Source of the DNA: Chrysochromulina tobinii
Lineage: Eukaryota
Length of the DNA stretch: 36,650 bases
NCBI GenBank assembly: GCA_001275005.1
Contig: JWZX01001800.1
Span: 1 to 36,650 of the forward strand
Direction: 5' to 3'
Shown here: positions 6-35,100 of the stretch, one piece after another
Layout of the letters: each line of letters begins with the position of its first letter
Numbering within the stretch: the first letter of the stretch is position 1
Notes under the pieces: model-generated
Seen by the model: the letters and a program-made list of their open reading frames with translations, nothing else
Told to the model about the DNA's origin: nothing
The model's database searches: none
Made by a program: the position numbers and the translations under genes

Positions 6-1945
6 ATGGCGCCCGGCACGGGCGAGCCGGGCGCCGGGCCGGGCGCCGTCGGCGCGAGCAGCGACGCGCCCACGACGACGCCGACGAGGCCGCGGCGGCC
101 GCCGCGCACGGGCGTGAACGCAGCCGCCTTGGGCGCCGAAGAGGAGTTGCCTAATATGGACGATGACGACGGTTACGAGAGCTTCAAGACGGCGCTTCCT
201 AATATGGATGAGATCGACTCGATGCCTTCGAGCCCGGGGGCGTTCACACCGGCTGGGCAGCCGTTCACACCCGTGCGGCTGAGCTACGCGGAGCGCGCCG
301 TGCTCGCCTCGCGGCTGGACGGTCCGCAGGCGAACGCGCTGCTGCAGGAGGTGATTGCCACTGATGACCTCTTGATTGCCACTGATGACCTCTTGATTGC
401 CTCGCGGCTGGACGGTCCGCAGGCGAACGCGCTGCTGCAGGAGGTGCGTGAGTGCCACGGAGTGCCACTGAGTGCCACTGAGTGCCACGAATTGCCACGA
501 ATTGCCACTGATTACCTCTTGATTGCCTCCCTCATCAGGTGCAGCAGCGCATGGCGACCGTCGCGCTGCTCCAAGAGGCGCTGGTCAACTCGCTCATGCT
601 CAACGGACCGCTCGGCACGACGCTCGGCCTCGATGCGGACGATGGCGACGAGGAGAGCGGCGGCGGCGACGACGACGACGACGGGAGCGACGGCGAGGCG
701 CTCGATACGACGCTCGTTCGGCGGGGCGCCGAGTTGAGCGGGATCGCGCGCTCGGCTTACTCGCCACTGAAGGAATTGGAGGAGGAGCTGCCTAATTTGG
801 AAGGAGAGGAGTTTCCTAATTCGGTCGCACCGCCGGTCGGCGAGACGAAGACGATGACTCAGCGTCTTCATGAGCGGATCTTGAGCGGCGGACCTCCTTT
901 GCCTAATATGGATGAGCGAATCTTGAGCGGCGGGCCTCCTAATACGGTACCGCATGTCCAATACGGCGCTGCCCAATACGGCGCTGCGCAGCAGGCTGCT
1001 GAATCCCGCGCAGCGGCAGCCGAACGGCGTCCCCACGCGAATGAGGTGGCGGAGGGCGCCGTGATGGGCGGCGGCGCGGAGGCTGAGGGCGCCCTGATGG
1101 GCGCCGGCACGGAGGCGGCGGCGAAGGCGAAGGCGGAGGCGGCGGAGGCGGAGGCGGCACGCGTGGAGGCGCTCGAGACGGCGCGAGCCGCCCTCGCGCG
1201 CAGCGAGCAGCTTGAGGCGGAGGTACCCATGCCCGCCTCCAATGGCCTCTGATTGCCTCTGATTGCCTCTGATTGCCATCTGATTGCGTCCCTCATCAGG
1301 TGGCCTCTATCTGATTGCGTCCCTCATCAGGTGGCCATGCTTCGCTCCGCATACTCGATGGCGGCCTCGACGGCTTCCTCCGCCGCCGACGTGCTGCAAC
1401 TCGAGGCAGAGGTGGCTCTGCTACGCGCGGCAGGCTACGCGTACTCGCAGGCCCCCTCGCAGGCCGCCTCGCAGGCCGCCTCGCAGGCCGCCTCCCGCAG
1501 GCCATCATCTGATTCGGAGACGGCGGAGGCCGTGGCGCCCACGTCGGCGCCCTTGGACGCCGTACACGCCTACGCGCCCACCTCGGCGCCCGCCTTTGCG
1601 CCCGCCTATGCGCCCACCTCGGCGCCCGACTATGCCGAGACGGCGCCCCCCGACCCCCCTCCCGAAGTCCGCAAGTTCAAATCGGGCGCCGAAGCCGCGG
1701 CGGCGGCCCTCGCGGCAGCGAGATCGGGCGCCGCGCCGCTCGTCTCCGCCCCGGGCTCCGAAGTTTCGTTACTGCCGATCAAGTACAAGTCCGGGCGCGA
1801 GGCGGCGCTCGCAGCGCTCGCGGAGGCGCAGCGCAGGCGCGCGCCAGGCGAGACGCCCACTACGGCGCCGGGGGAGGCGCCCGTGACGGCGCCTGGTGAG
1901 GCGCCCGTGACGGCGCCAGCTGGGGAGCCGCCAAGCTTGATTTAG
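6..1945 (+). CDS. Low-complexity Ala/Pro/Glu-rich protein of unknown function, possibly 5'-truncated; exons 6-350, 539-1222, 1331-1945
   Basis: Removing GT-AG introns 351-538 and 1223-1330 (both phase 0, both ending CCCTCATCAG) joins ORFs 6+, 539+ and 1253+ into one frame (LLQE|VQQR, EAE|VAML), ending at TAG 1943-1945. No domain recognised. Confidence 0.6.
351..538 (+). other. Intron containing a 48-bp copy (399-446) of the upstream exon end (306-353), decamer repeats and the type-1 acceptor cassette
   Basis: GT at 351 and GATTGCCTCCCTCATCAG ending at 538; direct repeat read from the sequence. Confidence 0.75.
1223..1330 (+). other. Intron with tandem type-1 acceptor cassettes
   Basis: GTACCC at 1223. 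CTGATTGCGTCCCTCATCAG|GTGGCC occurs twice, with the AG ending at 1299 and 1330. Confidence 0.7.
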
Positions 1946-2337
1946 CTGCCGCGAAGAGCGAGAGCAGGGGAGCCAAAGGTCGTGTCAAAAAGTCGCCGTC
2001 AGGCCCGTGTGGGGAAATCGAGTAGTCTGTCCAGAGCACGACCACCAACGGTGAGAAGCCCCGTTCAGCATGCCCGTCAGTCAGCAATCCGTCAGTCAAT
2101 CCGGGGAGGGAACGTGGGGCATGCCTGGCCATTAAATTGTTGAGCATGCTGTTCATGTCTCAGTCGATTGAATTTTGGACAGCATAAACAATTCGAAGTG
2201 GTCGGAATCCGACCCTATTAAATTACGCTTTACACGGAGGATCGAACATTATTTACAGTGCGCGTATAAAGTAACTGAAAACTCGTTAGATACTGCCGCC
2301 CTCAAAGAGTCCACTTTAGATTGCACCGGAGATTGTC

Positions 2338-5300: not shown

Positions 5301-5748
5301 TCTGTGCCTCCTGCTCGTCGTCATGCCCGGCGCCCTCCGCCTTCCCAGCTAGGGTTAGCCCCAGCTGCCCTTCGCTTTCGCGGGCTATGTGCCTGGCATA
5401 CGCGACGGCGGCCTCGACGGCGGTCGCAAAGCATCCGAGAGAGACATCCCGCCCAGGCTCCAGCACACGCGTGTATCCGGCCTGGAAGGGCTTATCCCAG
5501 GGCTGCCCTGATGGATCATTATGACAATTTGGCCTGCGGAACACGCCAAGGTAGCCCGTGTTCGAGTGAGGTGAGAGATGCAGCCGGAGCCCCTCAGCCT
5601 CGGTGAGCACCATGTCTGCCCCAACCTCCTCCTGGTCATCAGCCTCCACGCCGGCGTCGCCCTCAGGTTCGAGATACTCATCACGCTCAAGCGCGACGTT
5701 GCTGGCGTGGACCGGAATGCCGCGCGGCACTCGTTCCGCAGCTTGCAT
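2338..5748 (-). CDS. Intronless protein with seven AP2/ERF-like DNA-binding repeats and a C-terminal SP-RING (zf-MIZ)-like finger
   Basis: Seven copies of LRLHLSxxSxTGYxxV...KPFxAxY...VSLGxFATAVEAAVAYA, resembling the AP2 GV...LG.F.T..EAA.AY signature. C-terminal LQCVLSHQRLIDPATLEGCMHLSRCN...CPVHGC follows the SP-RING pattern. First ATG at 5748; the ORF track start at 5772 is TTG. Confidence 0.8.
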   Translation of the reverse strand: MQAAERVPRGIPVHASNVALERDEYLEPEGDAGVEADDQEEVGADMVLTEAEGLRLHLSPHSNTGYLGVFRRPNCHNDPSGQPWDKPFQAGYTRVLEPGRDVSLGCFATAVEAAVAYARHIARESEGQLGLTLAGKAEGAGHDDEQEAQSEQGTAKDAAGRVPRGIPFNASNVALERDESLEPEGDAGVEADDQEEVGGDMVTEAEGLRLHLSPRSNTGYRSVRREPNYPSGQPRAKPFRAEYRHDGRSVSLGYFATAVEAAVAYAKHMARDGEAAAEAEAGEADARAVMVTEAEGLRLHLSPRSSTGYLRVRREPNDPSGQPRAKPFRAEYRRDGRSVSLGCFATAIEAAVAYAKHMARDGEAAAEAEGAGHDDEQEAQSEQGTAKDAAERVPRGIPFNASNVALERDESLEPEGDAGVEACDLAEVGADMVTEAEGLRLHLSPQSNTGYLHVIRLPNNPSGQPPAKPFQAKYKRDGRHVSLGCFTTAVEAAVAYARHIARDGEAAREADAAGMVTEAEGLRLHLSRNSSTGYRRVHRRPNNPSGQPRAKPFQVQYRRDGRNVSLGHFATAVEAAVAYAMHVAHDGEAAAEAEGVEHDDEQEAQSEQGAAKDAADQVPRGIPVHASNVAHECDECEDEDSDEDRDECGTFGCTLPDKHAGLHQIPTLVRGARERRPSSRVLEGLKPVSQVAIAKQRSRSRAAVGDGAWDGAWDEEGGAEEEGPLEEREEEEEDGVELTPDAAGMVTEAEGLRLHLSPLSNSGYLRVRRMPNYPSGQPRAKPFQVQYERDERLVSLGYFATAVEAAVAYARHMARDGESAGEADAAGMVTEAEGLRLHLSPRSNTGYRSVYRIPNYSSGQPPAKPFQARYKRDERLVSLGYFATAVEAAVAYAKHMARGGEAAAEAEGAGHVDECDENDESSDEQDEEDDEDDEDDEVGEPDGEVDDEDGEVKLELTPTEDEEEEEEDEECREVRAIPAVAQAMESDEDEDEALLEVQVEWEQLRLQCVLSHQRLIDPATLEGCMHLSRCNLTALEESRRHQSCQARSSVCPVHGCNISCLRRGSVRRDDWLRALLSTVPSTVDVIWLRGDEVSLTPPRREGGAMLSGNKGGKRKVEVALEVTATRPLQRRRRAMP
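3020..5745 (-). repeat. Internal modular duplications (AP2 module and VPRGIPxxASNVA linker module) within the AP2 gene
   Basis: Near-identical nucleotide blocks, e.g. GAGATGCAGCCG(G/A)AGCCCCTCAGCCTC recurring for each AP2 unit; the linker module occurs four times. Confidence 0.85.
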
Positions 5749-7998: not shown

Positions 7999-10900
7999 AT
8001 GGGCGCATGCGCGAGTAAGGAGCCGACTGATGCTAGTCCTGTGGATGTCCGACTGGACCCGGAACCACCAGCTCGAGCAGAGAGTCCGCCGCATCTGAAC
8101 GTCGAGTGGCCTCCAGGGACTGCGAGCACTTGCAAGCAACATCAGCACACCTCTGAGATGCTTGCGAGCGCTGCTCCGGTGGCCGCCAAAGGCGACGCTA
8201 GATGTACGAGCGCTACTCTGCCGTCGCTGAATTCAGCGGCTGATGAAGTCGAAACGCGAGCACCTGCAACTGCGCAGTCGCCTATTTCAGTGGCCGGCGC
8301 AGATGACGATGCAGGTGCAAGCCCTCCTCTGCCTCTGCTCGATCCGGCTGCCGAAGTCGATACGCTAGCAATTGCATCTCCATCGGCCACCGCAGACGAC
8401 GATCCATGTACAACCAACGCTGCTATGCCATCGCTCGATCCAGCAGCTGCCGAAGGCGAGACGCTAGCATCTCGAGACACTATGACTACGCCCACGAAAA
8501 GGAGCTCCAGTGGCAATCAGTCGCAATCAGAGGCCATCAGAGGCAATCAGTGGCAATCAGTGGCAATCAGCACGAAAAGGAGCTCCAGTGGCAATCAGTC
8601 GCAATCAGAGGCCATCAGTGGCCATCAGTGGCAATCAGTGGCAATCAGCACGAAAAGGAGCTCCAGTCAGTTCGCCAGTCCTAGGGTTTCCTTGGCTACT
8701 GCGCAAGTACCTATTCTAGCCACGGGCACCCGTGACTCCCAGCCCACGCCTCCCATGCGCACAAAGTGCTACTCGAAATCAGCCGCGGATTGGGCCGCGG
8801 CACGGGCGCAAACGCCCACACCGGAGATGAAGCTCGTCATCGAGACCGTGCCTGCAGCGTCGCCGCACACGCCGCCAGCTGCGGCTGCCAAGCCGCTGCC
8901 ACATCATCCATCCATCGTAGCGACGCGTGCCCCACCCGTGAGCAGCCCAGCTGCTGGGAGCGTGTGGAATGCCCCACCCGTGAGCAGCCCAGCTGCTGGG
9001 AGCGTGAGCAGCCCAGCTGCTGGGAGCGTGAGCAGCCCAGCTGCTGGGAGCGTGTGGAATGAGTTCCTGGAGGCGTCCGAGATGCAGCCGGCCATGGCTG
9101 CGATTGCGGCGCTGCGAGCTCACTTTGAGATTTCGGATCGAATCCGTGGCCTAGAGGTGATTGAGGCACTCATCACGCGGGCTGAAACGACCATGCCCGC
9201 TCGGGTGAAGGAGATGATGCGTGCCCTGGTGCGCCAGCTGATGGCCTCTGATGGCCTCTGATTGCAACTGATTGCCACTGAGTGCGTCCCTCATCAGGTG
9301 CGCCAGCTGATGGCCTCTGATGGCCTCTGATTGCGACTGATTGCCACTGAGTGCGTCCCTCATCAGGTGCGCCAGCGAGAGCGACGCAAGGCGGCGCCGC
9401 CCGCCGCGGGCAAGCCACCGCTCGTCGTCGTCATCAGTGGCGCGGGGCCTGTCGGCCTACGCTGCGCAGTCGAGTGCGCTCTCTATGGGATTGCCACTGA
9501 TTGCCACTGATTGCCACTGATTGCCACTGATTGCCACTGATTGCATCCCTCATCAGGTGCGCTCTCTATGGGATTGCCTCTGATTGCCACTGATTGCCAC
9601 TGATTGCCACTGATTGCATCCCTCATCAGGTGCGCTCTCTATGGGATGAGTGTTACCGTGATCGAGCTACGCCTCACCTTTAGCCGCGTCAACATCCTCA
9701 CGCTCTGGCCGCAGACGGCGGACGACCTCATGGGTCTTGGAGCCAAACTCTTCTACCCCAAGTTCACCAACCATGGCGACCTGCTGCACATGGGCACGCG
9801 AGAGATCCAGTTGGCGCTCTTTAAGACGGGATTGCTCCTCGGGATCCGTTTCCTGAACGGGGCGGAGCTCGTCGCCGTGCAGGCCCCCACACGCAATATT
9901 GGTTCGAAGACGCACTGGCTGGCATGGGCGCGTGACAAGACCGCCGGGCAGCAGCACATACGGGCAGCCGCCACGCCCCCAGCCCCGCCCATCCCTAGTA
10001 TGGATCGATCCATCCACTCGAGCCTTTCCATATTAGGGACGAGCGCCGATGTGGTCGAGGCGGCAGGTCACCAGCCCGGCGCTGATGGCCTCTGATGGCC
10101 TCTGATTGCGTCCGATGGCGTCTGATTGCCACTGATTGCGTCCCTCATCAGGTCAACAGCTCAGCGCCCGTGATGGCGCCCGTGCGTCCCCGGGCACCTC
10201 CGCTGAGCAGTTGGCGCCCTTGCCCAGCAAGCTCAAGCTCCCACAGCAAGCTCCCACAGCAAGCTCCCACAGCAAGCTCAAAATCCCACAGCTCTTTCAG
10301 GACTCGCAGCCGCTCGTCACTCCCGTCGACCCTCGTACAGCCGCTTTGGCACGCGCTGCCACGGGCGCCTTGTCACGCGCCGATCAGCGCTCGCGCCAAC
10401 CCGCCGCCAAACCTCCGTCGATGGGCAGCTGTGCGAGCAGTCACATCGCGACCAGCGGTTGTGGTGGCAGTGGGCGCGCGCATGGCGTCGCGAGTGGCAA
10501 CGCGCTCGACTCGACTCTCGACCCACGCCTCAAGGCCGCCCTCGACTCGACGCTCGACCCACGCCTCAAGGCCGCCCTCGACTTCAAAGAGGACAAGACT
10601 GCCACGTACACGCGCGGCGCGCTACAGGGAGTGTGCAACACGATGGCGATGGCCGAGGTGATGCGCGGCTTTGTGCTGCCGGGTGCCTCCCATCCTCCAG
10701 ACGACGTGCGCCGGCTGCACTTTGACGAACCTCGTGATTGCGATGGATTGCGATGGATTGCGACTGATTGCCTCCCTCATCAGGTGCGACGGTTACACTT
10801 TGATGCTCTCGTGATTGCCGAGGGCGAATGGAGTACGACCTGCAGCCTGCTGGGCATCACCAAAGCGGTCGACAAGTTTGCCACCGCCATCGGCCTCATA

Positions 10901-12646
10901 GTGAACATGCACCTGGACACCTCGTCCCCGTCCTCCCTACGATCGTTTGTGGCGACGGGCGTCGCGCCGCAGCTTGTGCAGCTGGCCCAGGCGGGTCTCG
11001 AGTGCGAGAATCTCGAGTATCTCAAGGGAGAGACCCATTACATTGCGGCGACGATGAGGAAGAAGACGTTGCTCACCGAGGGGGTGCTCAAGGCTGATGC
11101 CGTGGGCCCCGCACTCCTGCACGCGAGCAACGTCGACATCGAGCAGCTGCTGCGCTTAGGGCGTAACCTCGCTACCTTTGTCGGCATCCCAGACTCTGCG
11201 CCTTTTGCAGACTTCCACCCTGTGAAGCTCTTCGACTTCAGCTCGCGCGCGCGCTGTATTGCTCCCTTTCGCGTGCTCGGCGTCGACCCGACCAACCAAC
11301 CCTGCTGCCTCGACCTGGAGGTGTGCGCGTGCCTGCGCGAGGCGCAGAGTCGCTATCTCGCCCACGAGGTGGCGCAGCAGGAGGCCGTCGTCCGCAGCTG
11401 CGAGGCGAAGCGCAACGAGGCAGCGCAGGCCATCGAGACGGCAGCGGCCGCGGTGGCCGCCGCCAAGGAAGCGTTGCGCGCTGCGACGAGCACACACGAG
11501 AAAAAGGCGCGCGTGCAAAAGCTGGCCGAGGGAGAGGCAGTGCTGACACGAGCACAGCAGGCCCTCCCTCCACTCGAGGCACAGACGGTGAGCGTGATTG
11601 CATGCCTGACTACCTGTGATTGCCTGTGATTGTCGCCCTCATCAGGCCCTCCCTCCACTCGAGTCCCAGACGGGTGAGCGCTCGCGCCATTGATTGCCAT
11701 TGATTGCCTCCCTCATCAGGTGAGCGCTCGAGCCAAACTCGAGGTGCACGTGGACATTGATTGACATTGATTGCCGTCGATTGCCTCCCTCATCAGGTGA
11801 GCGCTCGAGCCAAACTCGAGGTGCACGTGGAGGCCGACGCCGCTTGGAGGCAACGGTGCTCCGCAGCGCGTGGTGCGAAGAGCCTGTGCCCCGTCTTCCC
11901 CATCGGCGACGCGCTGCTGGAGCCGTTTTGGCCGCAGGTGAATGTGAATGTGAATGTGAATGTGAATGTGAATGTGAATGTGAATGTGAATACTTGGATG
12001 ACTGGAGCCGTTTTGGCCGCAGGGGTTGGGCTCGAATCGGGGCTTCCACAGCGCACTGGATGCGGCATGGTCCATGTATGAGATGCAGTGCCACGGCGTC
12101 GTCGAGCAGGCGCTGATCGAGCGAGCGTTTGCGTATGATGTGATGCTGCACACCGCCTTTGCCAAGGGCTGTGTGCAGCCCGGGGCTGGTTGGACGGCGG
12201 ACAGCATGACCCGGTACCCATTGCATGCTGATTGCCTCCCTCATTGTGTGCAGCCCGGGGCTGGTTGGACGGCGGACAGCATGACCCGGTACCCATTGCA
12301 TGCTGATTGCCTCCCTCATTGTGTGCAGCCCGGGGCTGGTACCAGCCGAGTCTGATCAAGGTCGAATTGCATGCTGATTGCCTCCCTCATTGTGTGCAGC
12401 CCGGGGCTGGTACCAGCCGAGTCTGATCAAGGTCGAATTGCATGCTGATTGCCTCCCTCATTGCATGCTGATTGCCTCCCTCATTGCAGGTACCAGCCGA
12501 GTATGATCAAGGGCACGATGCTCACGTACGAGGACTCGGCGTCGAAGCGAAGCCATAAGGGGCGTGCGGCCGTGCCGCCCCGCTACCTGACGCTGATCGG
12601 CGCGTCGCTGGCGGTGCTCGGGGCGACGCCTAGCGATCGGAAGTAG
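7999..12646 (+). CDS. MICAL-type FAD-dependent monooxygenase with N-terminal myristoylation-like motif; exons 7999-9228, 9367-9473, 9630-10066, 10152-10705, 10784-11587, 11797-11937, 12023-12213, 12490-12646
   Basis: The spliced product has VVVISGAGPVGLRCAVECALYG...FSRVNILTLWP...LGAKLFY, FDALVIAEG, ENLEYLKGETHY, and IGDALLEPFWPQ|GLGSNRGFHSALDAAW, which parallel the MICAL monooxygenase motifs. N-terminus MGACASK. Confidence 0.8.
9229..9366 (+). other. Intron made of two tandem 69-bp units, each starting with a copy of the downstream exon start (GTGCGCCAGC) and ending CCCTCATCAG
   Basis: Units 9229-9297 and 9298-9366; removal gives RAL|VRQRE in frame with the GAGPVG motif. Confidence 0.8.
9474..9629 (+). 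other. Intron: two units of an 18-bp downstream-exon copy (GTGCGCTCTCTATGGGAT) + GATTGCCACT array + type-1 cassette
   Basis: Phase-2 removal restores GA|G TGC GCT CTC TAT GGG ATG (ECALYGM). Confidence 0.8.
11938..12022 (+). other. Intron: (GTGAAT)n microsatellite donor + copy of the upstream exon end supplying the acceptor
   Basis: CTGGAGCCGTTTTGGCCGCAGG appears before the intron and again at its end; removal restores EPFWPQ|GLGSNRGF. Confidence 0.8.
12214..12489 (+). other. Patchwork intron with several copies of upstream and downstream exon fragments and cassette pieces
   Basis: Removal restores ACC CG|G TAC CAG (TRYQPSM). Internal repeats of TGTGTGCAGCCCGGGGCTGGT, GTACCAGCCGAGTCTGATCAAGG and TTGCATGCTGATTGCCTCCCTCATTG. 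Confidence 0.7.
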
Positions 12647-13091
12647 CGCCGCAAATCAGCGGAGCACTCAGTGCATATGAGCATTGTCAACCAGTTTTTC
12701 ACAAAACGACACGCGGGGGACCCCTCTCGCCACGTGTACGCTGCCGATATGCGTGTTTTACTTACTTACTTACTAAGCGGGGTACCGCGCCGTCGAGGTG
12801 CGCGTTTCGCCATTGGCATTGCTACGCCATGTCCTGAGACGCGGAACCAGCGGAACCGTCCACACACCAACACGTTCACTCAAATCAATCGAATGATCGT
12901 GGTGGGCGACGCACACCCACTCTTGGTGGGCGACGCACACGGATCAGAGTCGCGTACCCCGAGTCATTCGGAAATGTCCAGGATTTCATACACGCACGAT
13001 CTTCATCATCAACTTTGCCGGCGCCTCCGAAATCTTGATCTCGTTTTCGCTGCATCGACGCGACCCGCGTCCGCGATACAGTCCGTAACAA

Positions 13092-14215
13092 ATGGCCGAG
13101 GACTCGCTCGTGGATGCCGTAGCCAGCATCTCCCTTCGAGAGCTGAATCATGACGTGGTTCGTCTCGTCGCGGTTGCGCTGACCGAGTCGGCATCGCGTC
13201 GCGTGTCGTCGTCGTCAGCTGCTGCATTCAACCCTGCTGACTTTGCTGCCGAACAACACGCACGAAATTGCGCTGGAGCCACGGAAATCGCCGCAATGCT
13301 GCAGGTGTGTCGGGGTTGGCGCGCAGCCATCTGTGCGACGGACGAGATCTGGGCCCGGCTGCTGCAGGCAGCTTTCCCGCGCCTGAACTTTGACGAACGT
13401 GCCGCATCATTTCGGCGAATCTTTGTTGCCGTGCAGCAAGCGCAACGGCTGAACTCCGAGCCGCCGGTGACGAGGACGCCCCCACACTCACCCGGCGCGT
13501 CGCTCGCCGACTTCACCTTCGTCATCATGGCGCGCTTCCAGCGCTGGGATGAGAATGAGCCCGTCGACGACCTCGACCGCGAGGTGCTCGAAAGCAGCGG
13601 CCCGATTGAGACATGGGCGGGAGGCATGAGCGCGTCCAGCCTCGGATCCCGACCGGACACGGAGGCGCCCTTCTTAGGCCTCCTGCAATGCGACGCCGCC
13701 GTATGCACCCTGAGCGTCTACGTCACCGCTCCGCCCGACGCCGAGGGTCGATGTCGCACGTGGCCACTCTATCGGGAGGGCGTGGCCGAGGGGAGCGATG
13801 AGGACTGCAGCGAGATGTGCGTGCCCCTCCCATGGCCTCTCTCATGGCCTCTCTCATGGCCTCAGACTGCCTCTCTCATGGCCTCGGACTGCCTCTCTTA
13901 TGGCCTCGGACTGCCTCTCTCCGCAGGTTCACGTACTACACCACACAAGAGTTGCCGTACGCGCACTACGCCGTTGGTGTGAATGACCTCGACGACTTCG
14001 GCGAGGACGGTGTGAAGTTCACGATGATGCCGCGCAATTACGAGGGAAGCGTCTCACTCGGCCTCCAATATGACGATCAGCTCTACGAAGAGGACTGTGT
14101 GCGCTACCTGCGTGGGGAGCCGATTACGACCCACCTCGTCGATCGCGAGCTCGCCGCGCGGCTCGACGCCGAGAATGGCCCCTGGAAAGTACCGGTACTG
14201 TCAGACACTAGTTAG
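13092..14215 (+). CDS. F-box-like protein; exons 13092-13816 and 13927-14215
   Basis: N-terminal LRELNHDVVRLV...MLQVCRGWRAAICATDEIWARLL resembles an F-box. The GT-AG intron 13817-13926, filled with CATGGCCTCTCT-type repeats, joins AT|G TTC in frame. Confidence 0.6.
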
Positions 14216-19264: not shown

Positions 19265-21418
19265 TCAAGCGAGCCCTCGCTCGTATGACCAGATGTCACC
19301 TTTGGGAGGGTTGCCGCGCTGCAGCACCTTCCGAATGCGCGCCTGATGAGGGAGGCAATCAGCATGCACTCAGAGACGCAATCAGAGACGCAATCAGCAC
19401 CTTCCGAATGCGCGCCTCGTCCTCATCACTGATCGGATTCGCGCCATTCACGATCAGCTTCGCAAGTTTCTTGTGCTCCTCCTGCCAAATTAGGACGACA
19501 CTTGCCCAATCAGGGAGGTGCTCACAGGCAATCAGGCACTCACAGTCAACCAGGCACTCAGTGGAGCTCGTTGAGGCGCACCAGATGAGTCGTATCTCGT
19601 ACTCCGAGCACCACCCAGCCGCCCTGAGGCCCCAACTGCCGCAGCACCTGTGGGGAGAGGTGAGGGCGCCGTGGTGAGCACTTGCATGCACACCAGGGGC
19701 CCCAGCTGGCGCAGCACCCAGCACACGGCGATGTTGGCTATGGTCGTGCCGTGCCGATCCGCCACGAGCTTGAGTTCTCCGAGAAGCTCTTGGAAGAGTG
19801 CCCAGCTGCCCCACCTGATGAGGGAGGCAATCAGCATGCCATCAGAGACGCAATCAGGGAGAAGCTCTTGGAAGAGTGCCCAGCTGCCCCACCTGATGAG
19901 GGAGGCAATCAGCATGCAATCAGATACGCAATCAGGGAGAAGCTCTTGGAAGAGTGCCCAGCTGCCCCATCGGTCGAGGTTCGCCTTGTAAACATGCGCA
20001 TCATGATGCAATCAGTATGCCATCAGTATGCAATCAGTCAGCCATCAGTCAGCCATCAGTATGCCCCACCGGTCGAGGTTCGCCTTGTACATGCGCATCG
20101 AGACGGTCGACAGCTGCCGGGGCGGCGCCGCAAGCCCAAGGAAGCGGTCCGAGAGCCAGCCTCCCGCGACAGTGCCGAAGCAGGCGAGCTTCAGACGATG
20201 CTCCCTTGCAAATGCGAGCATGCCATCAGAGGTCATCAGTGGTCATCAGGGGTCATCAGTGGTCATCAGTGGTCCTCACCTTGCAAATGCGAGCATGCCA
20301 TCAGAGGTCATCAGTGGTCATCAGTGGTCATCAGTGGTCATCAGGGGTCATCACCTTGCAAATGCGAGCATGTCATCAGAGGTCATCAGTGGTCATCAGT
20401 GGTCATCAGTGGTCATCAGGGGTCATCAGTGGTCATCACCTTGCAAATGCGAGCATGGCATTCTCCGGCCGCAGGTCGATGAGCGAGTACTGGACCTGGA
20501 CGAGTGGCAATCAGTGGCACTCAGTGGCACTCCGTGGCAATCAGTGGCAGTCAGTGGCACTCCGTGGCAATCAGTGGCACTCAGTGGCACTCCGTGGCAA
20601 TCAGTGGCAGTCAGTGGCACTCCGTGGCACTCAGTGGCACTCAGTGGCACTCCGTGGCAATCAGTGGCAGTCAGTGGCACTCCGTGGCACTCAGTGGCAC
20701 TCAGTGGCACTCCGTGGGACTCAGTGGCAATCCGTGGCACTCCGTGGCACTCAAAGGCTCTCAAAGGCACTCCATGGCGAGCAGTGGCGAGTCCTGGACC
20801 TGGTTCGCCGTGAGCGGCAGGCCCTCGTCCACCACGAGCTCGCGCAGGTGCGCCGTGTCGAAGTTGCATGCGGCCGCCTCGCCGAGGAGCCCTTCGCTCT
20901 TGAGCGTGAGTAGGTGGCGAGCGGCCTGCCGGTAGGCGCGATCGGACCAGTCCCACCCTGCCGAGATGATGTGAAGCGAGGGGAGTGCAGCGCGTGAGGC
21001 GTGGCGTGAGGGCCGCACCAGCCAGGTCGGTGTGGGGTTCGTCCGGCCGCCGCCGCGCCGTCGCCCTACAATGAAACTGCACGAGGCTCGGCACGACTCC
21101 GAGAGCGGTGCGAGATTGGGCGTTGACGGCTCGCGCGTTGGCCTCCGAAGCATCGGATGTCACGTACTTGGTGTAGATGTGCTTCGCTCCTGCGCGACCC
21201 AGCAGCGACTCCGACTTGCCATAGATGTCCGCCGTGTCAAAGTGCTCAAAGCCCGCAGCCATGTACGCCCTGACGGTCTCGACCGCCATGCTTTCATCGC
21301 GGTGGCGCTCGAGGAGCTGCCAAGCGCCGATCACGATGCGTGGGCTGCCGCCGTCCGCGCACGACTCTGTCGTGCTCGCGAGGAGGGCGACCAGGAGGGG
21401 CAGAAAGACCGCGATCAT
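19265..21418 (-). CDS. Aldo-keto reductase with N-terminal signal-like peptide; introns 20958-21069, 20496-20799, 20205-20439, 19815-20069, 19648-19717, 19482-19581, 19343-19415
   Basis: The spliced product has IVIGAWQL, FDTADIYG, TKY, LVQFHWWD, CNFD, NQ|VQYSLIDLRP, FGTVAGGWLSDRFLG, IANIAVCW|VLRQ, ending GDIWSYERGLA-stop; typical AKR motifs. Confidence 0.85.
20205..20439 (-). repeat. Intron of three units: GATGACCACT-type decamer array + copy of the upstream exon end (CATGCTCGCATTTGCAAG)
   Basis: CCTTGCAAATGCGAGCATG on + at 20204, 20279, 20354 and 20439; removal restores FAR|EHRL. Confidence 0.75.
20503..20790 (-). repeat. Long GAGTGCCACT/GATTGCCACG decamer array inside AKR intron 20496-20799
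   Basis: Continuous 10-bp periodicity (TCAGTGGCAC/TCCGTGGCAA on +). Confidence 0.9.
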
Positions 21419-25549: not shown

Positions 25550-27479
25550 TTACAGTACACATCCTCCTTCACCTTTGACCTTGCGAAGTTCCCAATCGAA
25601 TCCCTCGGCCTCGGCGCGCTGCTCGGCGCACTGATAGCCGAGCACAGTGGCGACCAGCGCCACCTTCGTGGGGCTTCGTCGGGATGGTGTGGCGAGACGC
25701 TTGGCGTGAGCGCGCCATTCCTTGACGCTCCCATTGCCTAATTTGGGTGGCGGCGGGCGAGTGCTCGGGAGGACGCGCCCTTCCTCTACGCTCATCGCGT
25801 CGCCCATGGCGTCCACCCATCGGGCGGCAAATTGGGTTACGTCAATTGAGACGCTCATCACGGCGCCCATTGAGTCCACCCGTCCGGCGGCACGTTGTGC
25901 TACCGGTACGTCCCTCTCGTCCTCCTCCGCTGCTCGGCCACTCGCGCTGATGACGGAGCTCATCATGGACTCGAGGACGCTCAAGGCATGCAGCTCGCAG
26001 GGCAGACGCGCCACCGCTTGACGAAGCTCCGCCACGGTCGCCGTCCGGCACGGCCCCAGTTTTGATGGGTGCGCCCACACCTGTGGGGAGCGGTGAGGGC
26101 GCCGTGGTGAGCGCTTGCATGCGCGCCAAGGCACACACCAAGTTTGGGTGGGTGCGCCCACACCCAACGAGGGCCAGTCTGGAGGCGCTCGCTATCGGTA
26201 CGCGCCGTCCTGGGCGAGCCAGCCCGACCCACTTCGAAGCGGAAACGCGCGTCCAGCGCCGTGCCGAGCGCTTGCATGTCTGCCTTCTCCTCGGCAGTGC
26301 CCTGCGGAGCGAGATGGCAATCAGTGGCCATCAGTGGCCATCAGTGGCCATCAGTGGCCATCAGTGGCCATCAATGGCAATCAGTGGCAATCAGTGGCAA
26401 TCAGTGACCACCGCCAGCGGTTATCAGCGCGGCAATTCAGTGACATTCACCTGTGGAGCGAGGCGGGAAAAGGGGACGACCGTCCGCGTGAGCGTTGGCT
26501 GCTCGATCACCTGTGGGGAGAAGTGATGGCGTCGTGGTGAGCACTTGCATGCACACCCGAGCGTTGGCTGCTCACACCAGGAGGCTGCGCGCATCGCAGG
26601 CCTCCTCCAGCTGTGGGGAGAGGTGAGGGCGCGCGCGCCGTGGTGAGCACGTGCATGCACACCAGGAGACTGCGCGTGTCGGAGGCCTCCTCTAGGCAAA
26701 GCTCTCGCGCTCCGAATGCCTCGTCGCCCGCCTCGCCCGCCTCGCCCGCCTCGCCCGCCTCGCCCGCCTCGCCCGCGGCGACGTGCCGTCGGATGGCACG
26801 GATGGCGACCAGTGCGAAGCGATTGGACGATCCAGCGCACCTGTGGGGAAAGGGCGCCATAGTGAGCACTTGCATGCACTCGAAAGCACGAGCGCGAAGC
26901 GATTGGAGGATCCAGCGCACCTGTGGGGAAAGGGCGCCATAGTGAGCACTTGCATGCACTCCAAAGCACGAGCGCGAAGCGATTGGACGAGCCAGCGCAC
27001 AAGCTCGCGAACATGGCCCGAGCGCCGCGTACGAATGCGTCGCGGCTCTCCTCGCCAGGAGCGGCGTCGGTTTGCAAGTGGAGGTACAGGACCTGGGCGT
27101 CGGCGTCGTCCAGCAAGCGCCGAAGCCGATCGGCGGCGCTGTGAAGGCGCGCAAAGTCTCCATCATGCACGGCCGGATCGTGATGGCGAAAGATGTGCGC
27201 GTGCTCCTTGGTGCGGTAACGCAGGTGCCCACCATGGCGCTCACGTCGAGGCGTTGGAGCGGAGCCGCTCACGTCGGGGCCTGCGTCGACGCTGTGCAGC
27301 TCGCGCCGATTGAGCAAGGTCGCACATCGATCTTCCAAGCACGCGCTGACCATCTCGGGCGTGGAATGGATCCAGTCGAACGGCAGCGCGAAGGAGGTGT
27401 GGCCGCGAGCTCTCAAAAACTCCGCGCCATGGCACGACGGCCCGAGGCTGCAGCAGTGCGTGATCGTGGAAATCAACAT
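25550..27479 (-). CDS. DUF1796-like putative papain-type cysteine peptidase; introns 26841-27000, 26511-26662, 26302-26450, 26081-26163
   Basis: N-terminal CSLGPSCHGAEFLRARG...LPFDWIHS...FRHHDP matches the SLGxxC/PFDW/FxHH pattern of this family. Removing the introns keeps one frame. C-terminal half unrecognised. Confidence 0.65.
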
Positions 27480-27770: not shown

Positions 27771-29097
27771 TCACGGCCCATGCTCTTGTTGTGCAGATTC
27801 GGGCGGGTTCACTTTCTCTTTGCTTTGTCGGCGTACTTGCCGGCCCTCGGCAGGACCCTCCGCCTGCTGCTTCCATATCTTGGCAGTCGCAGCCGCGGCC
27901 GCATCCTGAATGAGCGCCGTCACGGCGGCTTCCGGCGCGACCTCGGCCTTCATCTCGGCCTTTATCTCGGCCTTCATCTCGGCCATGGTCGGCTCGCGCA
28001 CCTGCAGGTTCACAGTGGGCAGCTCGACATTCTCCGATTAGTCAATGACAGCGCTCATCAGTGAACACACAGTCGCGCACCTGCAGGTTCACAGTGGGCA
28101 GCTCGACGTTCTCCAGACGCGCTTGCATTCGGTAGTCGCCCGGGACCGACGCGCTAAAGTTGATCGCATACGAGCCGTCGCCGCGGTCGATGACCTGATG
28201 AGGGAGGCAGGGATTGTGCACTCAGAGACGCAATCAGAGACGCAATCAGAGACGCAATCAGAGACGCAATCAGATTGCATACGAGCCATCGCCGCGGTCG
28301 ATCACCTGGCAATCCGAAGCCTTCGGTCATCAGCGGTCATCAGCGGTCATCAGTGTTCATCAGTGGTCATCAGTGGTCATCAGTGGTCATCACCTGGCAA
28401 TCCGAGGCCTTCGGGCCAAAGACTTTGGCCTCGAGCCGACTGCCGCCCACGTCGACGTTGTTGTTGAACCGGTCGACGAGCTGCACGAGGACCTCGCAAG
28501 GCTGGCCCGTCGAGGGAGCCCCCCCCCCGAGGCTCGTGGCTGGGAAGAGCTTTGACTTGGGCGCGAAGGGTGGGCCGGGGCGCACGATGAACTCCATCGG
28601 GGAGCCTGTGAAGATGGGGTGTGAAGATGGGTGTGAAGATGGGTGTGGAGATGGGATGGGGATGCCCGTTGAGCATGCACTCGGACGCAATCAGTATGCA
28701 CTCGGAAGCAATCAGCATGCATTCGGTGGTCATCAGTGGCCATCAGTGGTCATCAGTGGCAATCAGTTGGCAATCACCTGTGATGGGGTGCCCGTTGAGC
28801 TTGATCGTGGCCGAGTAAGTTCCCTTGAGGGTGAGCTCCGAGCTCGAGCTGAACTCGTGCGCACCTGTGGGGAGGCGAGGGCGCCGTGGTGAGCACATGC
28901 ATGCGGGCAGGTGGAGGGTGAGCTCCGAGCTCGAGCTGAACACGAGCGCACCGACGACCTCGGCCTGGCGCACGACCATCAGGGCTCATCAGTCGCAATC
29001 AGTGCTCATCAGTCGCAATCAGGGCGCACCGACGACCTCGGCCTGGCGCACGACCGCCGCGGACTTGCGAGCGTTCGCACCGCCGCCGCCGCCGCCT

Positions 29098-29135: not shown

Positions 29136-32100
29136 CTCGCCCTGTGCCGAGCCTCGGTCGCCCAACACGGCGCCCACATTGGCCCTCAGCTGCATCGGAT
29201 GCTCGCCGTCCGGCGCATGCAAGATCGTCTTGAGCTCCGATTCCACAGCCTTGAGCGTCGCCTGTGGGGATGCGGGGGCGCCGTAGTGAGCACGTGCATG
29301 CTGGCTGAGAGGGGATGTGCATCGGGACGGCTCGGCCTTCAGGGTCAGGGCGCCGTGGTGAGCACATGCATGCTGGCTGAGAGGGGATGTGCATCGGGAC
29401 GGCTTTGGCCTTCAGGGTCACCTGATTGCTATACTCATCAGTGGTCATCAGTGGTCATCAGGGGTCACCTGATTGCCATACTTATCAGTGGTCATCAGTG
29501 GTCATCAGTGGTCATCAGTGGTCATCAGTGGTCATCAGGGGTCATCAGGGGTCACCTGATTGCCATACTCATCACGCATCTGCACACGCAGCAGCAGCCG
29601 CTCGCCCGCTGGGTGCTCTGTGATCGCGTCGCGCAAGAAAGACGATGCGGCCGTTGGTCGGCCAGGGTCGACATGCACTGCAAACGGGCAGCCCGGTAGG
29701 AAGATGCGCGTCAGGATCGCCTCGCCTCGCCTTGCCTCGCCGCCGCCGTCGACAACGGCTGCCTTGGCGGCAACGGCCGCCTCATGCTCCGCGTTGGCTT
29801 TGGCGCCCGCCGAGTGCTTGCCTGATGAGGGACGCAATCAGTTTCAATCAGTGGCAATCAGAGGTGCAATCAGAGGTGCAATCACTGCGCATGCAAAGTG
29901 CTTGCCTTCTCCGACGTGCTTCACGGCTGCCTCAAGCTTCTTCTTCTCTTCTGGACTGACGTGCACGTCCGTCCACATGTAGAGCTCGTAATCTCCCGAG
30001 CTGTGAGGCTCATAGCTCACCTGTGGGGAAGGGACGGCGCCGTGGTGAGCACATGCATGCAAGGCAGGGGCTCGTAATCTCCCGAGCTGTGAGGCTCTTA
30101 GCTGACCGCGATCGTGGAGCCCTGCCATGAGCTGTGATACTGCAACGTCTGCATCGCGCGCACGAACGCGTTGCGCTCCGCCTGGTTCATCAGACGCAAT
30201 TCGTGGCAATTAGTAGGGCGCTCAATCGCAATCGGTGGCACTCCGTCGCACTCAGTGGCATTCAGTGGCATTCAGTGGTACTTAGTGGCACTCAGTCGTA
30301 CTCCGTGGCACTCAGCGGCACTCAGTGGCACGCACCTGCTTCATCAGGCTCGGCGCCTTCTTGTTCGGATCCGCATCGGTGTGTGCCTCCGTCTCCCCCT
30401 TGAGCTTCAACGGCTTCTTGCCTGTGGGGAAGGGACGGCGCCGTGTTGAGCACGTGCATGCAAGGCAGGGGCCCATCATCTCCCTCGAGCTTCAACGGCT
30501 TCTTGCCTTCGTTCGATGGAGTCTCGACGATGAGGGACGCCATCAGTGGCAATCAGAGGTGCAATCACAGCGCCCGCCGAGTGCTTGCCTTCGTTCGATG
30601 GAGTCTCGACGAGACCGAACCCAAACTTGAGCGACGACTGCGTCGACGGCACCGCCGAGTTGCCAAACGCATCTCGACAGATGATCTCGAGGCGCATCAT
30701 TTCCCCACAGGCCGCGCTGCGCAGCCCGCCGACACCAGTCTTGCCCTTCCAGAGCACCTCGCACCGCGCCACGTCGGGCGCCGCCGAGAGGACCGTTACG
30801 GCCGTTGGAGAGCCGCGCACCTGTGGAACAGGCCAGGCGCGCCGTGGTGAGCACTTGCATGCAAGGCGGGGCTGTTGGAGAGCCGCGCACGGGGGCGTCG
30901 TTGATGGTCACTAGGAGAGAGTACTCGCCCGCGACCTTGCCCTTCCATGAGATCTCGTAGCTCCCGTTGCGCAGATCGCTGATTTGGGGCACGGGTGCGG
31001 TCTCCTCCGGCGTGATGCGCACCTGATGAGGGAGGCAATCAGCATGCAATTCAGATCGCTGATTTGGGGCACGGGCGCGGTCTCCTCCGGCGTGATGCGC
31101 ACCTGATGAGGGAGGCAATCAGCATGCAATTCAGAGCTGGTCAAGGTTCGTCAGGTGAGCTCCATCGGGGCCTGCCTCCGTGATATGCCCCTCTGATTGC
31201 ATGCTGATTGCCTCCCTCATCAGGTGAGCTACTCCATCGGGGCCTCCGTGATATGCCCCTCTGATTGCATGCTGATTGCCTCCCTCATCAGGTGAGCTAC
31301 TCCATCGGGGCCTCCGTGATATGCCCCTCTGATTGCATGCTGATTGCCTCCCTCATCAGGTGAGCTACTCCATCGGGGCCTCCGTGATATGCCCCTCTGA
31401 TTGCATGCACCTTGATGTCCGCGCCGCCTTCGACGCCCATCATCAGTGGCAATCAACGCACATCATCAGTGGCAATCAACGCACCTTGATGTCCGCGCCG
31501 CCTTCGACGCACAGGTTGCCCATGTTGTCGCACAGCCGAAGCACAAAGGCGCCCCGGTTGCCCGCCACGCTGCTCAACGGCAGCTGCTCGGACGGCATCA
31601 AGGTCGTCGGGGCGTGCGCAGGGCCGGGCTTCACGTGGAGTGTGAAAGGCGAGCCTGGGAGGCGCGGGCGCCGTGGTGAGCACATGCATGCGCTCGGCCC
31701 GTTCGGGTTCAGTGTGAAAGGCGAACCTGGGAGGCTTGCGGACTGTTGACGAAGCCCCACGTGGAGCTTGTACGTGCCGGCCGCCCCGATGGAGTAGCTC
31801 ACCTGATGAACCTTGACCAGCTCGCCGTGTGCATGCAACCTGCCCGGGAAGATGCCCCCGAATGCAAACGCGATGCCGCGGGCATCAGCCGCGAGCTCAT
31901 ACGAGAAGCTCGGACCGACCTGTGGGGAAGAGGCGGGGGCGCCGTGGTGAGCGCTTGCATGCTGAGGCTCATACGAGAAGCTCGGACCGACCAGACGCTC
32001 AGCCAATTCCACAGCGCTTGGAGCCAACCCACTGAGCAGCTGGCTCGCTAGGCTACTCGTCGCCACGCCGCTGTGATTATTCACGCCAAGCGCCCCAGCT

Positions 32101-35100
32101 GCCTTGTAAGGCGCGACGCTCTCATCCAGATGGACGCCAGCACCGCTGTTAGCCTTGAGCGCCTTTTCGAACGCCTTGTCGGCGGCGAGCCGCTTATTCC
32201 ACAGCTCAAGCTGCAATCGGCGCTCATTAGCGTCGACCTTGGCGTGCTGGCGCGCGAGCCGCTCCTTGCCGCCCTTTTGGACCGCGGTCACCCATCCGCG
32301 TACCTGATGAAAGAGGCAATCGGTGGCAATCAGAGGCAATCACATCCCCTACTTGGACCGCGGTCATCCATCCCGCGTACCTGGATGAAAGAGGCAATAA
32401 TTGGCAATCAGTGGCAATCACATCCCCTACTTGGACCGCGGTCATCCATCCCGCGTACCAGCGTCCCGTCCGGCAATCATTGGCAATCAGTGGCAATCAT
32501 TGGCAATCAGTGGCAATCAGTGGCATCATCCATCCAGCGTACCAGCGTCCCGTCCGGTAGGGTCGCTCCCTCGACAACATACTGCACCTTAACACCAGTC
32601 GCCACAAGCACCTGTGCAGCAGGCATGGCGCCGTGGTGAGCACGTGCATGCACCATGGCGTGCGCCGTGGTGAGCACTTGCATGCACCTCAGCTCGCGTG
32701 CCGCCGTCGGCCGCTTGCTCTCGCCGCAGCTGCTTGAGGAGCGCGCCGGGTAGCACCTGATGAGGGAGGCAATCCGCATGCAATCGGAGGTGCAATCTCA
32801 GAGGAACGAGCCGGCAATCACCATGGCCAACTCGGCATTCACTGGCAATCAGTGGCCATCAGTGGCAATCAGTGGAAATCAATGGCAATCAGTGAAGATC
32901 AATAAAAAATCACCTTGGCCAACTCGGCGCTCTCGGTACTCAGAGCCTCGCGAAGGATGAGCGGCTTGGTGCCCACGACGGCGCGCGCCGTGCCGAGCCG
33001 TTCCCACAGCGCCGTGTCGGCGCTCTCCATCAGCCATGGGGTGGACGAGACCGGAATCGCCACGTCATCCGGATCGGCGCTGTCGCCCCCCACTTCCAAA
33101 TCGGGCAAGTTTGGCAAGTTTGGCAAGTTTGGCAAGTGGCTCCCAAAGGAGCTCGCGCCCACCACGGCGCTACCGCCACCGCCCTTGGCCCCCGCCTTGC
33201 CCCCCGCCCTGCCCACCCCCTCCTTGGCGCCCACCACGACGCCCGGCGTTGCCCTTGCCGTTGGGCGATTTGTTACCGGCCGGCCCGACGTCGGGCGCCG
33301 TGGTGGGCGGCGCCGTGGTGGGCGGCGGCAGCGACTTGGCGGGTGCGGGGGGGGGAAGCGACTTGGACGTGACCGGCGCCGTGCTGGGCGACGATGGAGG
33401 AGATGCGATCTCGATCTCGTCGGCGAGCAGCTGCGGCCTCGCTGAGGGCAAAATCTCAAGCGGCTCCACGTGCACGTCGAGCTCCTCCGCGTACGCGACC
33501 TGATGAGGGAGGCAATCCGCATGCAATCAGAGGTGCAATCTCGGTCGCATCTCGGTGCCTCCGGCGTGATGCGCACCTGGCCCAGATTGTCGACGAACTC
33601 AATGGCAATCAGTGGCAATCAGTGGCCATCAGTGGCAATCAATGGCACGCACCTGGCCCAGATTGTCGACGAACTCAATGTCGAACGACATCGGTTGGCG
33701 CGCGACTGCATGCTTGAGTGCGTCGCCGCGCAGCAGGCATCGGGAGGGCTCCGCCTTGAGTGTCACCTGTGGGGAGGCGAGGGCGCCGTAGTGAGCACTT
33801 GCATGCCGCGCAGCGGGGATGTGCATCGGGCCCTTCACAGCCGATGCAATGACGCCGTGATGGGCACATGCATGCTTGGAGAGGGGATGTGCATCGGGGC
33901 CTTGAGTGTCATCGCATCGGCTGTGGAGGGAGCTGTGAAGGGGCTGTGCAGGGGCTGTGCAGGGGCTGTGAAGTGAGCGTCACCGCATCAGCTGTGAAGG
34001 GGCTGCCCGAGATCGCGATCCCATCGCACGAGATCGAAATCTCGAGCTGGCCTGAGACCTCGGGCTTGTAGGTCACCTGTGGGGAGGGGAGTGGGGAGGG
34101 CGCCGTGGTGAGCACTTGCATGCACACTCGAGGTGGCCCGAGACTTTGGGCTTGTAGGTCACCGTGTAGCAGCCGTTGTCGTGGTCCAGGACCTTGGCAT
34201 GTAATTTCTGCGGGTTGGGGCGCACCCCGCGCACCTGTGGAACAGGCAGGGCGCGCCGTGCTGAGCGCTTGCATGCAAGGCGGGGCCATCCGTGTGGGGC
34301 GCACGCCGCGGCAATCAGTGGCCATCAACGCACCTTGACCACAAACGGGTCGCCGCCGGTGGTTCGTCAATCAGTGGTTCGTCAATCAGTGGTTCGTCAA
34401 CGCACCTTGACCACAAACGGGTCGCCGCCGGTGGTTCGTCGATTGCCATCGCCATCATGGGCCGTGATGACAAACTGCGCGGCCTGATTGACCAATGCCC
34501 ACTGCAAGCCGCGCCCATCGCACTTGCACTTGCTCGCGAGCGCTCGCGACGGCGCTTGCGGCACTGTGGGGTCCTTTGACGGATCCGGCAGCACCGTCGC
34601 CGCCGGCGCTCGCTCCACTGCGACGGGCTCCAAGACCGCCTCCTTCTTCTTCTTCTTCTTCTCATCGGCGCGCTCACCACGGCGCCCTTTCGTATCGGCC
34701 GGTTCGCTCGCTTTGGGCTTCTCGGCCGCCGCCGGCGCCCTGGCCGTGATGAGCTCAAACGCGAGCTCGGACGGCCTGTGGAATCCGCCGTGATTGCTCG
34801 GGCACTTGAAGAAATAACGGTCGCCGATTCGGCCGTTGCACGTGCCCACGGGTTCGTCGAACTGGATGCCGCACCAGACCCCCTGGCCCAGCGTCGGGAT
34901 CGTCCCCACGAACTGCACGACGCCGTGCTTGTCGCCCACGCGGCAACGGTCGCCCTGCCGGTAGGTCGGTATTCGGGTGTTTGGCGGCTCGACGGCCACC
35001 GGCGGGCTCAACTCTTGAGAGTCGGCTCGCCGGTGCTTCGCATGGGGCTTCTTGTCCGTCGAGCCGGATGCCTCGGGTCCTGGCGCGGCCGCGGCAATGT

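Follow-up and report, generated by a model that had tools for sequence, protein, structure and literature searches.

The window analysed here, a 36,650-nt stretch of Chrysochromulina tobinii DNA (contig JWZX01001800.1), carries about 40 short introns within 37 kb, most of which consist of a copy of about 4–51 nt of a neighbouring exon joined to half an intron that is shared with the others. These introns are real, spliceosomal and recently gained. They have GT/GC...AG ends, are removed from mRNA, and recur as similar introns at unrelated sites, as introners in the broad sense do. Our preferred explanation, to which we give about an even chance of being right, is that half of an existing intron was copied in when a break in a gene was mended, coming to lie between duplicates of a short exon stretch, and that seamless products were then selected.

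Architecture of the half-shared introns

Two types of acceptor cassette were found, A and B, the latter without a decamer array. The acceptor cassette CCCTCATCAGG occurs 24 times in the window (0.04 by chance) and GCATGYANGYGCTCA 20 times (0.00 by chance). A shared cassette is present in 28 of the 38 modelled introns, and cassettes lie sense to the gene in 21/24 (type A) and 19/20 (type B) cases. The type B core has 19 invariant columns across the 11 sequences aligned. Cassette-ended introns take their donor GT or GC from the copy of the downstream exon, and the 5' ends of A and B introns are site-specific exon copies, the similarity between introns not extending to the 5' boundary. An exonic GT or GC had been noted after nearly every cassette; CCCTCATCAG is followed by GT 21 times and by GC three times (24/24), and exonic GT/GC directly follows all 28 modelled introns ending in either cassette; the acceptor at 26611, whose donor is unassigned, is followed by CT. 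AG lies immediately upstream at 14 of the 28 A/B sites.

The nine introns offered as examples in the original prediction were all recovered, each with its copy of the downstream exon start, and the duplication length varies as claimed. The proposed layout of copy, decamer array and shared cassette needs correcting on two points: the acceptor cassettes are two, and type B, to which four of the nine belong, has no array. Likewise, limiting the shared portion to the 3' part is incomplete, since a mirror class combines a donor cassette and array with a copy of the end of the upstream exon, which supplies the acceptor.

Type A introns on the plus strand lie at 1223..1330 (diverged downstream copy, two cassettes), 9229..9366 (two tandem units, 2x69 nt, 10-nt downstream-exon copy), 9474..9629 (two tandem units, 18-nt downstream-exon copy), 10067..10151 and 10706..10783, where the copy of 20 nt (about 35 with one indel) differs from the exon at synonymous sites. 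Those on the minus strand, at 19343..19415 (21-nt perfect copy) and 29822..29905 (RNA skip of 84 nt), have GC donors. Type B introns, all on the minus strand, lie at 19648..19717 (20-nt copy; skip of 70 nt), 26081..26163 (23-nt copy), 26511..26577 (donor at 26575 or 26577), 26611..26710 (38-nt diverged copy, donor unassigned), 26841..27000 (two tandem units, 2x80 nt, 27-nt copy), 30021..30106 (37-nt copy), 30821..30890 (skip of 70 nt), 31920..31991 (25-nt perfect copy; skip of 72 nt) and 34077..34162 (36-nt copy). At 32612..32687 (minus; skip of 76 nt) there are two B cores, and at 31655..31726 (minus; skip of 72 nt) a B core without its tail sits between a downstream copy and a 9-nt upstream copy.

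The mirror introns at 11938..12022 (plus; hexamer array and a 21-nt perfect upstream-exon copy that supplies the acceptor), 20205..20439 (minus; three tandem units), 28002..28080 (minus; 34-nt upstream copy, 79-nt skip in an RNA piece) and 30182..30335 (minus; skip of 154 nt) are all preceded by AG, and two are followed by GG. A mirror-like intron lies at 28606..28777 (minus; skip of 172 nt).

Some composite introns contain a copy of the intron-free junction, and tandem or composite units are spliced out together (as single introns of 255, 462 and 294 nt). On the plus strand, 351..538 joins a donor, an array and an upstream-exon copy of about 45 nt to a full-looking donor–array–type A cassette; 11588..11796 is a composite type A with an internal upstream-exon copy (copies of 16 and 35 nt); and 12214..12489 pairs a 44-nt upstream copy with type A cassettes cut off before their AG. 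The minus-strand composites comprise 19815..20069 (54-nt intron-free junction copy, spliced as one 255-nt intron), 28195..28393 (mirror plus A, 54-nt junction copy; skip of 199 nt), 28865..29029 (type B, 64-nt junction copy; skip of 165 nt), 29262..29555 (mirror plus B; 294-nt skip in an RNA piece), 32304..32542 and 32757..32913 (type A; skips of 239 and 157 nt), 33500..33652 (type A, in which 17 nt match an exon located 1.3 kb further downstream in the coding sequence), 33767..33983 (type B, 11-mer array) and 34235..34405 (mirror plus B). A further one, 30422..30588 (minus; skip of 167 nt), begins with 19 nt of another exon of the same gene and an A cassette truncated before its AG at 30588. 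Within the composite at 31023..31484 (minus; skip of 462 nt), inverted type A units on the plus strand (31155-31359) copy an exon piece about 250 coding nt upstream.

Some introns carry an array and no cassette: 19482..19581 (minus; skip of 100 nt) and 26302..26450 (minus; decamer array). The intron at 20496..20799 (minus) consists of a 13-nt downstream copy and a long decamer array. In the 12-mer array intron at 13817..13926 (plus) an exon copy was not detected. Finally, two antisense insertions survive in frame, both without acceptor ends: a decamer array in MICAL exon 1 at 8493..8648 (minus; 18-nt duplication, 2x78 nt, no cassette end) and a type B core without acceptor tail within a coding ORF at 15348..15449 (minus; 2x48 nt).

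Splicing and recent gain

Among the RNA matches listed, 18 of the 32 tested introns are skipped at the predicted lengths; among the same matches a skip was not seen for 14, and none was seen for the MICAL introns. The RNA contigs X11 and X16 match the window without substitutions. The expectation that splicing would be seamless is borne out by the 18 junction skips and by comparison with orthologues, against which the codons are restored. It should be noted that the low-depth contig X16 retains 30182-30335, 32612-32687 and part of 29262-29555, and here DNA and unspliced RNA are indistinguishable. A non-cassette filamin intron guessed at 33080-33173 was rejected, as RNA contigs read through 33080-33124. 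The stop-free 1405-aa filamin model had needed this intron, and 150 alternatives fit.

Recent gain, as originally proposed, is supported by empty sites. A strain 1.3% divergent from the window (L011) lacks the intron at 20205-20439, and six sites in the AKR gene are empty in five more distant orthologues (L012, L013, L019, L020 and L023), a count that leaves out L015 and L017 for poor alignment at some junctions. Sharing of positions with distant relatives, which would have spoken for old introns, was seen once: at one distant locus (L024) an intron occupies the position of 20496-20799 but consists of an unrelated telomere repeat. The same copies recur in L011 alongside substitutions particular to that strain; it has the intron at 19648, and the window's intron copy there equals L011's exon, a comparison which indicates that copy and exon were probably identical at insertion. 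Tandem number differs between strains (L011; P0048/P0049 versus P0039): L011 has one A unit fewer at 19815..20069, and P0048/P0049 have one unit at 8493..8648 versus 2x78 nt in the window. L011 also has a shorter array at 20496..20799.

Searches for cassette and array patterns gave 0, 1 and 0 matches in viral contigs and 6, 0 and 4 single matches in prokaryote genomes, the latter treated as chance. The viral-contig match (L007), where a phage-like contig ends in this composite layout, is likely a chimera.

Proposed break repair and its alternatives

Of the preferred explanation, three things were observed: the order of exon copy, array and/or cassette, and exon; the 18 exact splices; and the one empty allele. 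In the proposed repair, 2–5 nt of microhomology would let an exonic 3' end anneal to another intron's array or cassette, in some cases within the same gene. Synthesis would copy part of that intron before returning to the gene at a point set back by a few to 50 nt, and so duplicate the stretch. In-frame stops would come with sense-strand arrays, so that only products with a usable splice site would persist, namely a copy starting with GT/GC as donor (types A and B) or a copy ending in AG as acceptor (mirror); antisense products would survive only in frame. Unequal recombination between copy and exon could then repeat the unit in tandem, and composites could result from additional events at the newly formed donor. 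Every new intron may serve as template for the next, and the family would spread while encoding nothing.

Microhomology at 15 copy/array junctions, chosen by a script rule from 22 rows, averages 2.3 nt against 0.67, a value that junction slippage can inflate and that none of 20000 simulations reached. Matches of 17–27 nt to other exons of the same gene were found, one of them inverted. The nearest relative of a type A cassette lies in the same gene in 9/15 cases (null 3.9, P 0.011); type B has no such excess (10/16, null 8.1, P 0.26) and no distance trend. The candidate intron-generating system of the original prediction was not borne out as a dedicated one that moves a defined cassette. Truncated cassettes, antisense survivors lacking the acceptor end, the mirror class and other-exon copies are better explained by templated repair followed by selection. 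The B core, on the other hand, is long and conserved, looks like a master element and counts against repair. Further, cassettes are absent from the 4717 intergenic nt of the window, some genes hold about 2 introns per kb and several of the long ORFs hold none; this is more targeted than generic repair predicts. No repair enzyme or intermediate was seen in this one window.

Three subsidiary ideas were discarded. Copies need not come from a diverged allele or homeologue: differences between copy and exon are synonymous in 28/61 cases against 25% expected (P 3e-4), divergence after duplication combined with selection on the exon gives the same, and L011 suggests identity at birth. Copies are not demonstrably GC-richer than exons (8 versus 11 at third positions). 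Junction copies do not call for an mRNA template, since the same layout results when a site is hit twice in succession.

More tentatively, break repair might be part of a transcription-coupled factory across haptophytes, in which RNA would supply the sequence that fills breaks in expressed genes, and introns would arise by the thousands with no transposon; the RNA source might be intron ends here and a telomere template in other lineages. We hold this to be possible rather than probable. If true, such a factory went unnoticed by introner screens because no more than half of any one intron is common to the family.

Target-primed insertion leaves a fixed 3' end, variable 5' truncation and a variable target duplication. 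The main rival to break repair is non-autonomous retroposition, in which a LINE-type reverse transcriptase would prime at a staggered nick on the ends of excised introns or pre-mRNA, giving a fixed acceptor end, 5' truncation with microhomology and variable duplications. A and B introns, which are fixed at one end and ragged at the other and show duplications of variable length, microhomology and a sense bias of their cassettes (21/24 and 19/20), fit this non-LTR pattern except for a tail. LINEs are reported in Phaeocystis in the available text of PMC12480563, and non-LTR introners exist according to that of PMC12130899. The mirror, truncated and antisense copies do not fit: the fixed end of the mirror class is its 5' side, and the 3' end is missing from antisense as well as internal copies. 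No reverse transcriptase domain occurs among the 14 window proteins scanned, and we consider retroposition rather unlikely.

Full-length introners (donor, array and acceptor with a short duplication) may instead have come first, the exon copies arising later by local duplication and deletion. The segment 444-538 resembles such a complete element, and haptophyte families scored as having target-site duplications and no terminal inverted repeats (TIRs) are catalogued in the portion of PMC9860276 available. We nevertheless think this improbable, as the youngest event, 20205-20439, has no acceptor cassette and simple A and B introns keep no relic of a donor cassette.

Equally doubtful is a telomerase-like, RNA-templated enzyme that would write arrays at gene breaks. 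It would account for the lineage-specific TTAGGG/CCCTAA-type introns of the AKR loci L014-L016, L018 and L024, some of which have short exon copies and are present or absent between close loci (putatively other haptophytes); the Prymnesium parvum telomere is TTAGGG, and interstitial telomeric tracts are pervasive in Calcidiscus. The decamer differs from this repeat, type B has no array, and arrays run in the same direction on the donor side and on the acceptor side, where end healing would be expected to leave them opposed.

That the introns are assembly artefacts, or old introns invaded by microsatellites, is largely refuted and scarcely credible: the contigs are short-read only, array length varies between assemblies (P0014/P0016; 10 nt in L008) and L024 has its intron at a shared position, but two independent assemblies (L009 and L010) are 100% identical to the window over 11071-21714, more than 10 kb, another strain has the same copies with its own substitutions, and the RNA skips and the six sites empty in five orthologues agree with recent gain.

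Relation to known routes of intron gain

Genome-scale intron gain is ascribed mainly to transposons with defined ends. As already noted at the outset, the window gives no sign of these. TIRs are absent from the 38 introns (best 12-nt end match 4–9/12), no reverse transcriptase, transposase or other mobility gene occurs among the 14 proteins scanned, and Rfam returned no match. The short, fixed-length target duplication of TIR/MITE introners is replaced here by one of about 4–51 nt. About 72% of introner families are unclassified according to the accessible part of PMC12130899. The 2022 introner screen, as far as PMC9860276 describes it, requires similarity at both intron ends and would therefore drop most window introns; published screens, which filter out such a class, may thus put the proportion of introns born by repair too low. 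Gain here is dense and still polymorphic, and each intron records duplication length, microhomology, donor template and, from copy/exon divergence, age. Cultures and many lake strains exist, which makes repair versus retroposition directly countable.

Other routes share single features with the window. In tandem genomic duplication, as outlined in PMC3443670, a duplicated exon gives the splice sites with coding unchanged, but both sites come from duplicated AGGT with no foreign DNA, whereas here a shared cassette gives one. Published direct-repeat-flanked inserts likewise have direct repeats around inserted DNA, with a repair origin proposed; in the text available they are not described as one family, whereas the window's insert is a piece of other introns, found dozens of times in 37 kb. 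The expansion of intron-containing repeats in Cryptococcus, on the available account (PMC2395259), multiplies intron units by unequal exchange or slippage and explains only the tandem units, which here are spliced out together. Fungal introner-like elements and Hypoxylon sister stwintrons also spread without transposase, break repair being proposed, but have long inverted repeats and, so far as PMC8469720 was available, no target duplication. Window introns have a duplication, and the eight that were folded gave no stable hairpin, their folding being no stronger than that of shuffled sequences (z -1.5 to +1.3).

The closest relatives are introners that carry one splice site and obtain the other from the target duplication, described in the available text for Symbiodinium and for Polarella classes 4/5 and 6/8/10 (bioRxiv 10.1101/2020.10.14.339549). 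Like the window introns, they show mass gain in exons and recruit donor or acceptor from the duplicated exon, and family 5 of a Chrysochromulina sp. MAG, by the account in PMC9860276, co-opts one splice site and has no TIRs. The claim of a distinct mechanism thus survives as that of a variant; haptophyte introners that co-opt one splice site, lack TIRs and have a 4-bp duplication are already in the literature. In the available descriptions, on which alone the families were compared, duplications are fixed at 3–8 nt and the body is shared end to end, whereas in the window duplications span 4–51 nt and sharing is limited to half of the intron; the two polarities occur side by side with composites, and some cassettes are truncated. 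The window family is a variant of one-splice-site introners that has neither their fixed duplication nor their defined ends.

Cassettes, exon copies and further layouts

Re-examination of the window sequence bore out all nine introns that had been described as a copy of the downstream exon start followed by a shared acceptor cassette (9229-9366, 9474-9629, 10706-10783 and 11588-11796 on the forward strand; 19343-19415, 19648-19717, 26081-26163, 26841-27000 and 34077-34162 on the reverse). The type A cassette consists of an array of decamers or dodecamers that ends in CCCTCATCAG and occurs in 24 copies (0.04 by chance). The type B cassette, which lacks the array and joins a GCATGC-containing core to a variable pyrimidine tail, occurs in 20 (0.00 by chance), with 19 invariant columns across 11 aligned sequences. 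Modelling covered 38 introns of five genes, with type A closing 16 of them and type B 12; exonic GT or GC follows all 28, and AG stands just before only 14 of the 28. Duplication length varies from about 4 to 51 nt. Cassette and array motifs are absent from the 4717 nt of intergenic DNA. A 14-nt resemblance to the beginning of some type B cassettes lies in intergenic 22590-22650.

The downstream copy and acceptor cassette of the original prediction stand; it missed a mirror class, composites, cut cassettes, antisense survivors and pieces of other exons. Mirror-class introns (11938, 20205, 28002 and 30182) consist of a donor, an array and 12-34 nt copied from the end of the upstream exon; the AG of this copy is the acceptor. 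Composites at 19815, 28195, 28865, 29262, 30422, 32757 and 33767 enclose the exon junction as it reads without its intron, copied without gaps and with at least 14 nt per side; in several, the upstream exon ends in something other than AG, so that the part on the donor side arose secondarily. Cassettes are cut before their own AG at 12214 and 30588, a type B core without tail lies at 31655, and antisense in-frame survivors without acceptor ends lie at 8493 and 15348. Introns also enclose 17-27-nt pieces from other exons of the same gene, one of them inverted. In filamin exon 1, an 18-nt in-frame stretch that resembles the type B core in inverted orientation (34667-34690, forward strand) is possibly another antisense relic.

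Read-through proteins of other contigs also display duplication-array-duplication (for example P0047, P0066, P0096 and P0115, among 112 matches), and many of these translations may be antisense readings of introns. A Prymnesium polylepis protein bears an antisense translation of the decamer array. The P0066 family (18 of the 112 proteins) is a lake-strain gene with peptide duplications and several in-frame antisense array insertions, which vary in number; it occurs across many lake strains. A phage-like viral contig (L007:1860-2060) ends in a composite element of the same intron family, with a 10-mer array, a junction copy and a type B cassette; the contig was probably joined chimerically.

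Splicing and the interrupted genes

Splicing of the AKR gene was confirmed by RNA contigs that skip 100, 70 and 255 nt; at least 3 of the 12 introns in the stretch compared are skipped among the RNA matches listed, and no MICAL junction is skipped among these. In the filamin gene, at least 15 of 20 introns are skipped (13 in the joint table and two more in the pieces table). Composite and tandem units are excised as one intron. Contigs X11 and X16 show no substitutions against the window, and their skips are therefore splicing; X12 is from another strain, and an intron skipped in that contig alone could instead be missing from the allele. Introns are retained in some RNA contigs of low depth.

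Intron removal yields stop-free frames of 1206 aa (MICAL), 334 aa (AKR) and 1405 aa (filamin-like). The last requires a guessed extra non-cassette intron, which RNA contradicts; at 33080-33499 the same gene has a frame change needing an intron or indel, where RNA contigs give no settled junction. AKR matches the protein P0006 at 59% over 328 aa, and MICAL matches P0007 at 65% over 802 residues, with zero offset at 6 of 7 junctions. All named relatives are haptophyte proteins, a Chrysochromulina tobinii MICAL-like protein (49%) and the Prymnesium polylepis protein mentioned above, which makes it likely that the window comes from a haptophyte. Pfam scanning of 14 window proteins supported MICAL, AKR and CAP-Gly, gave weak filamin domains and found no reverse transcriptase or transposase domain. 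The window DNA is eukaryotic and GC-rich, and matching DNA occurs in mixed-culture and freshwater runs. An intron-free 1136-aa ORF (2338-5748, reverse strand) contains a repeat of ~85 codons seven times and has no Pfam match; judged by eye, it is presumably AP2-like. A 1531-aa ORF without introns (14070-18665, forward strand) encodes zeta-toxin-type P-loop kinase and LRR domains and is multi-copy, with many divergent copies among sequencing runs.

Orthologous sites and recency

The structures withstood the check for assembly artefacts, two loci from other assemblies (L009 and L010) being identical to the window over >10 kb. Empty sites were found as well. The locus L011, differing at 11 of 839 exon sites, entirely lacks the mirror-class intron 20205-20439; it also has one type A unit at 19815 versus two in the window, and a shorter array at 20496. 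Further, six AKR junctions are intron-free in L012, L013, L019, L020 and L023 (53-75% protein identity), in a DNA-level orthologue comparison covering AKR only. L012, which retains the intron at the seventh, ordinary position, and L013, a 15-kb contig, are therefore likely genomic; L019 and L023 could be transcripts. In L024, telomere-repeat introns occupy both the position of 20496-20799 and that ordinary one, and therefore parallel gain or an old position is possible there.

Telomere-type-repeat introns occur in AKR orthologues of other putative haptophytes (L016:1860-1950 and 2010-2115, L015 near 2430-2500, L018:1287-1581, L024:707-865 and from 1113). In many of them a G-rich tract meets a C-rich one head to head, and some include short copies of exon sequence; one of those in L016 is missing from L015.

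Origin of the introns and known systems

Junction microhomology averages 2.3 nt versus 0.67 nt expected by chance (15 junctions). Type A cassettes show weak same-gene kinship (9/15, P 0.011), which was not found for type B. No TIRs were found in the window introns examined, and no hairpin in the folded introns. During break repair, template switching would copy part of another intron and then rejoin upstream, and selection would fix whichever end has to meet a splice site. We give this combination about an even chance; as a single process it would cover the two polarities and the truncations as well as the antisense survivors and the use of local templates. The marked confinement to genes, and among these to some only, lacks an explanation. 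Retroposition of intron ends would account for the A/B introns and the strand bias but leaves out the mirror class, and is rather unlikely. Full-length introners inserted and later remodelled would suit 444-538 but not the youngest event; this origin is improbable. Equally improbable is a telomerase-like repeat writer, suggested by TTAGGG/CCCTAA introns at orthologous loci; the decamer differs from the known telomere repeat.

The Emiliania huxleyi genome paper reportedly describes 10-11-bp tandem repeats enriched in introns. An open literature search returned no paper describing the present layout; most subscription journals lay outside its scope, and published introner family sequences could include these families. 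The part of an introner screen that lists its genomes names both C. tobinii and C. parva (PMC9860276). The window introns function like introners that co-opt one site and like introns born of duplication or repair, but neither definition describes them fully. They represent a real, spliced and still-active mode of dense intron gain.
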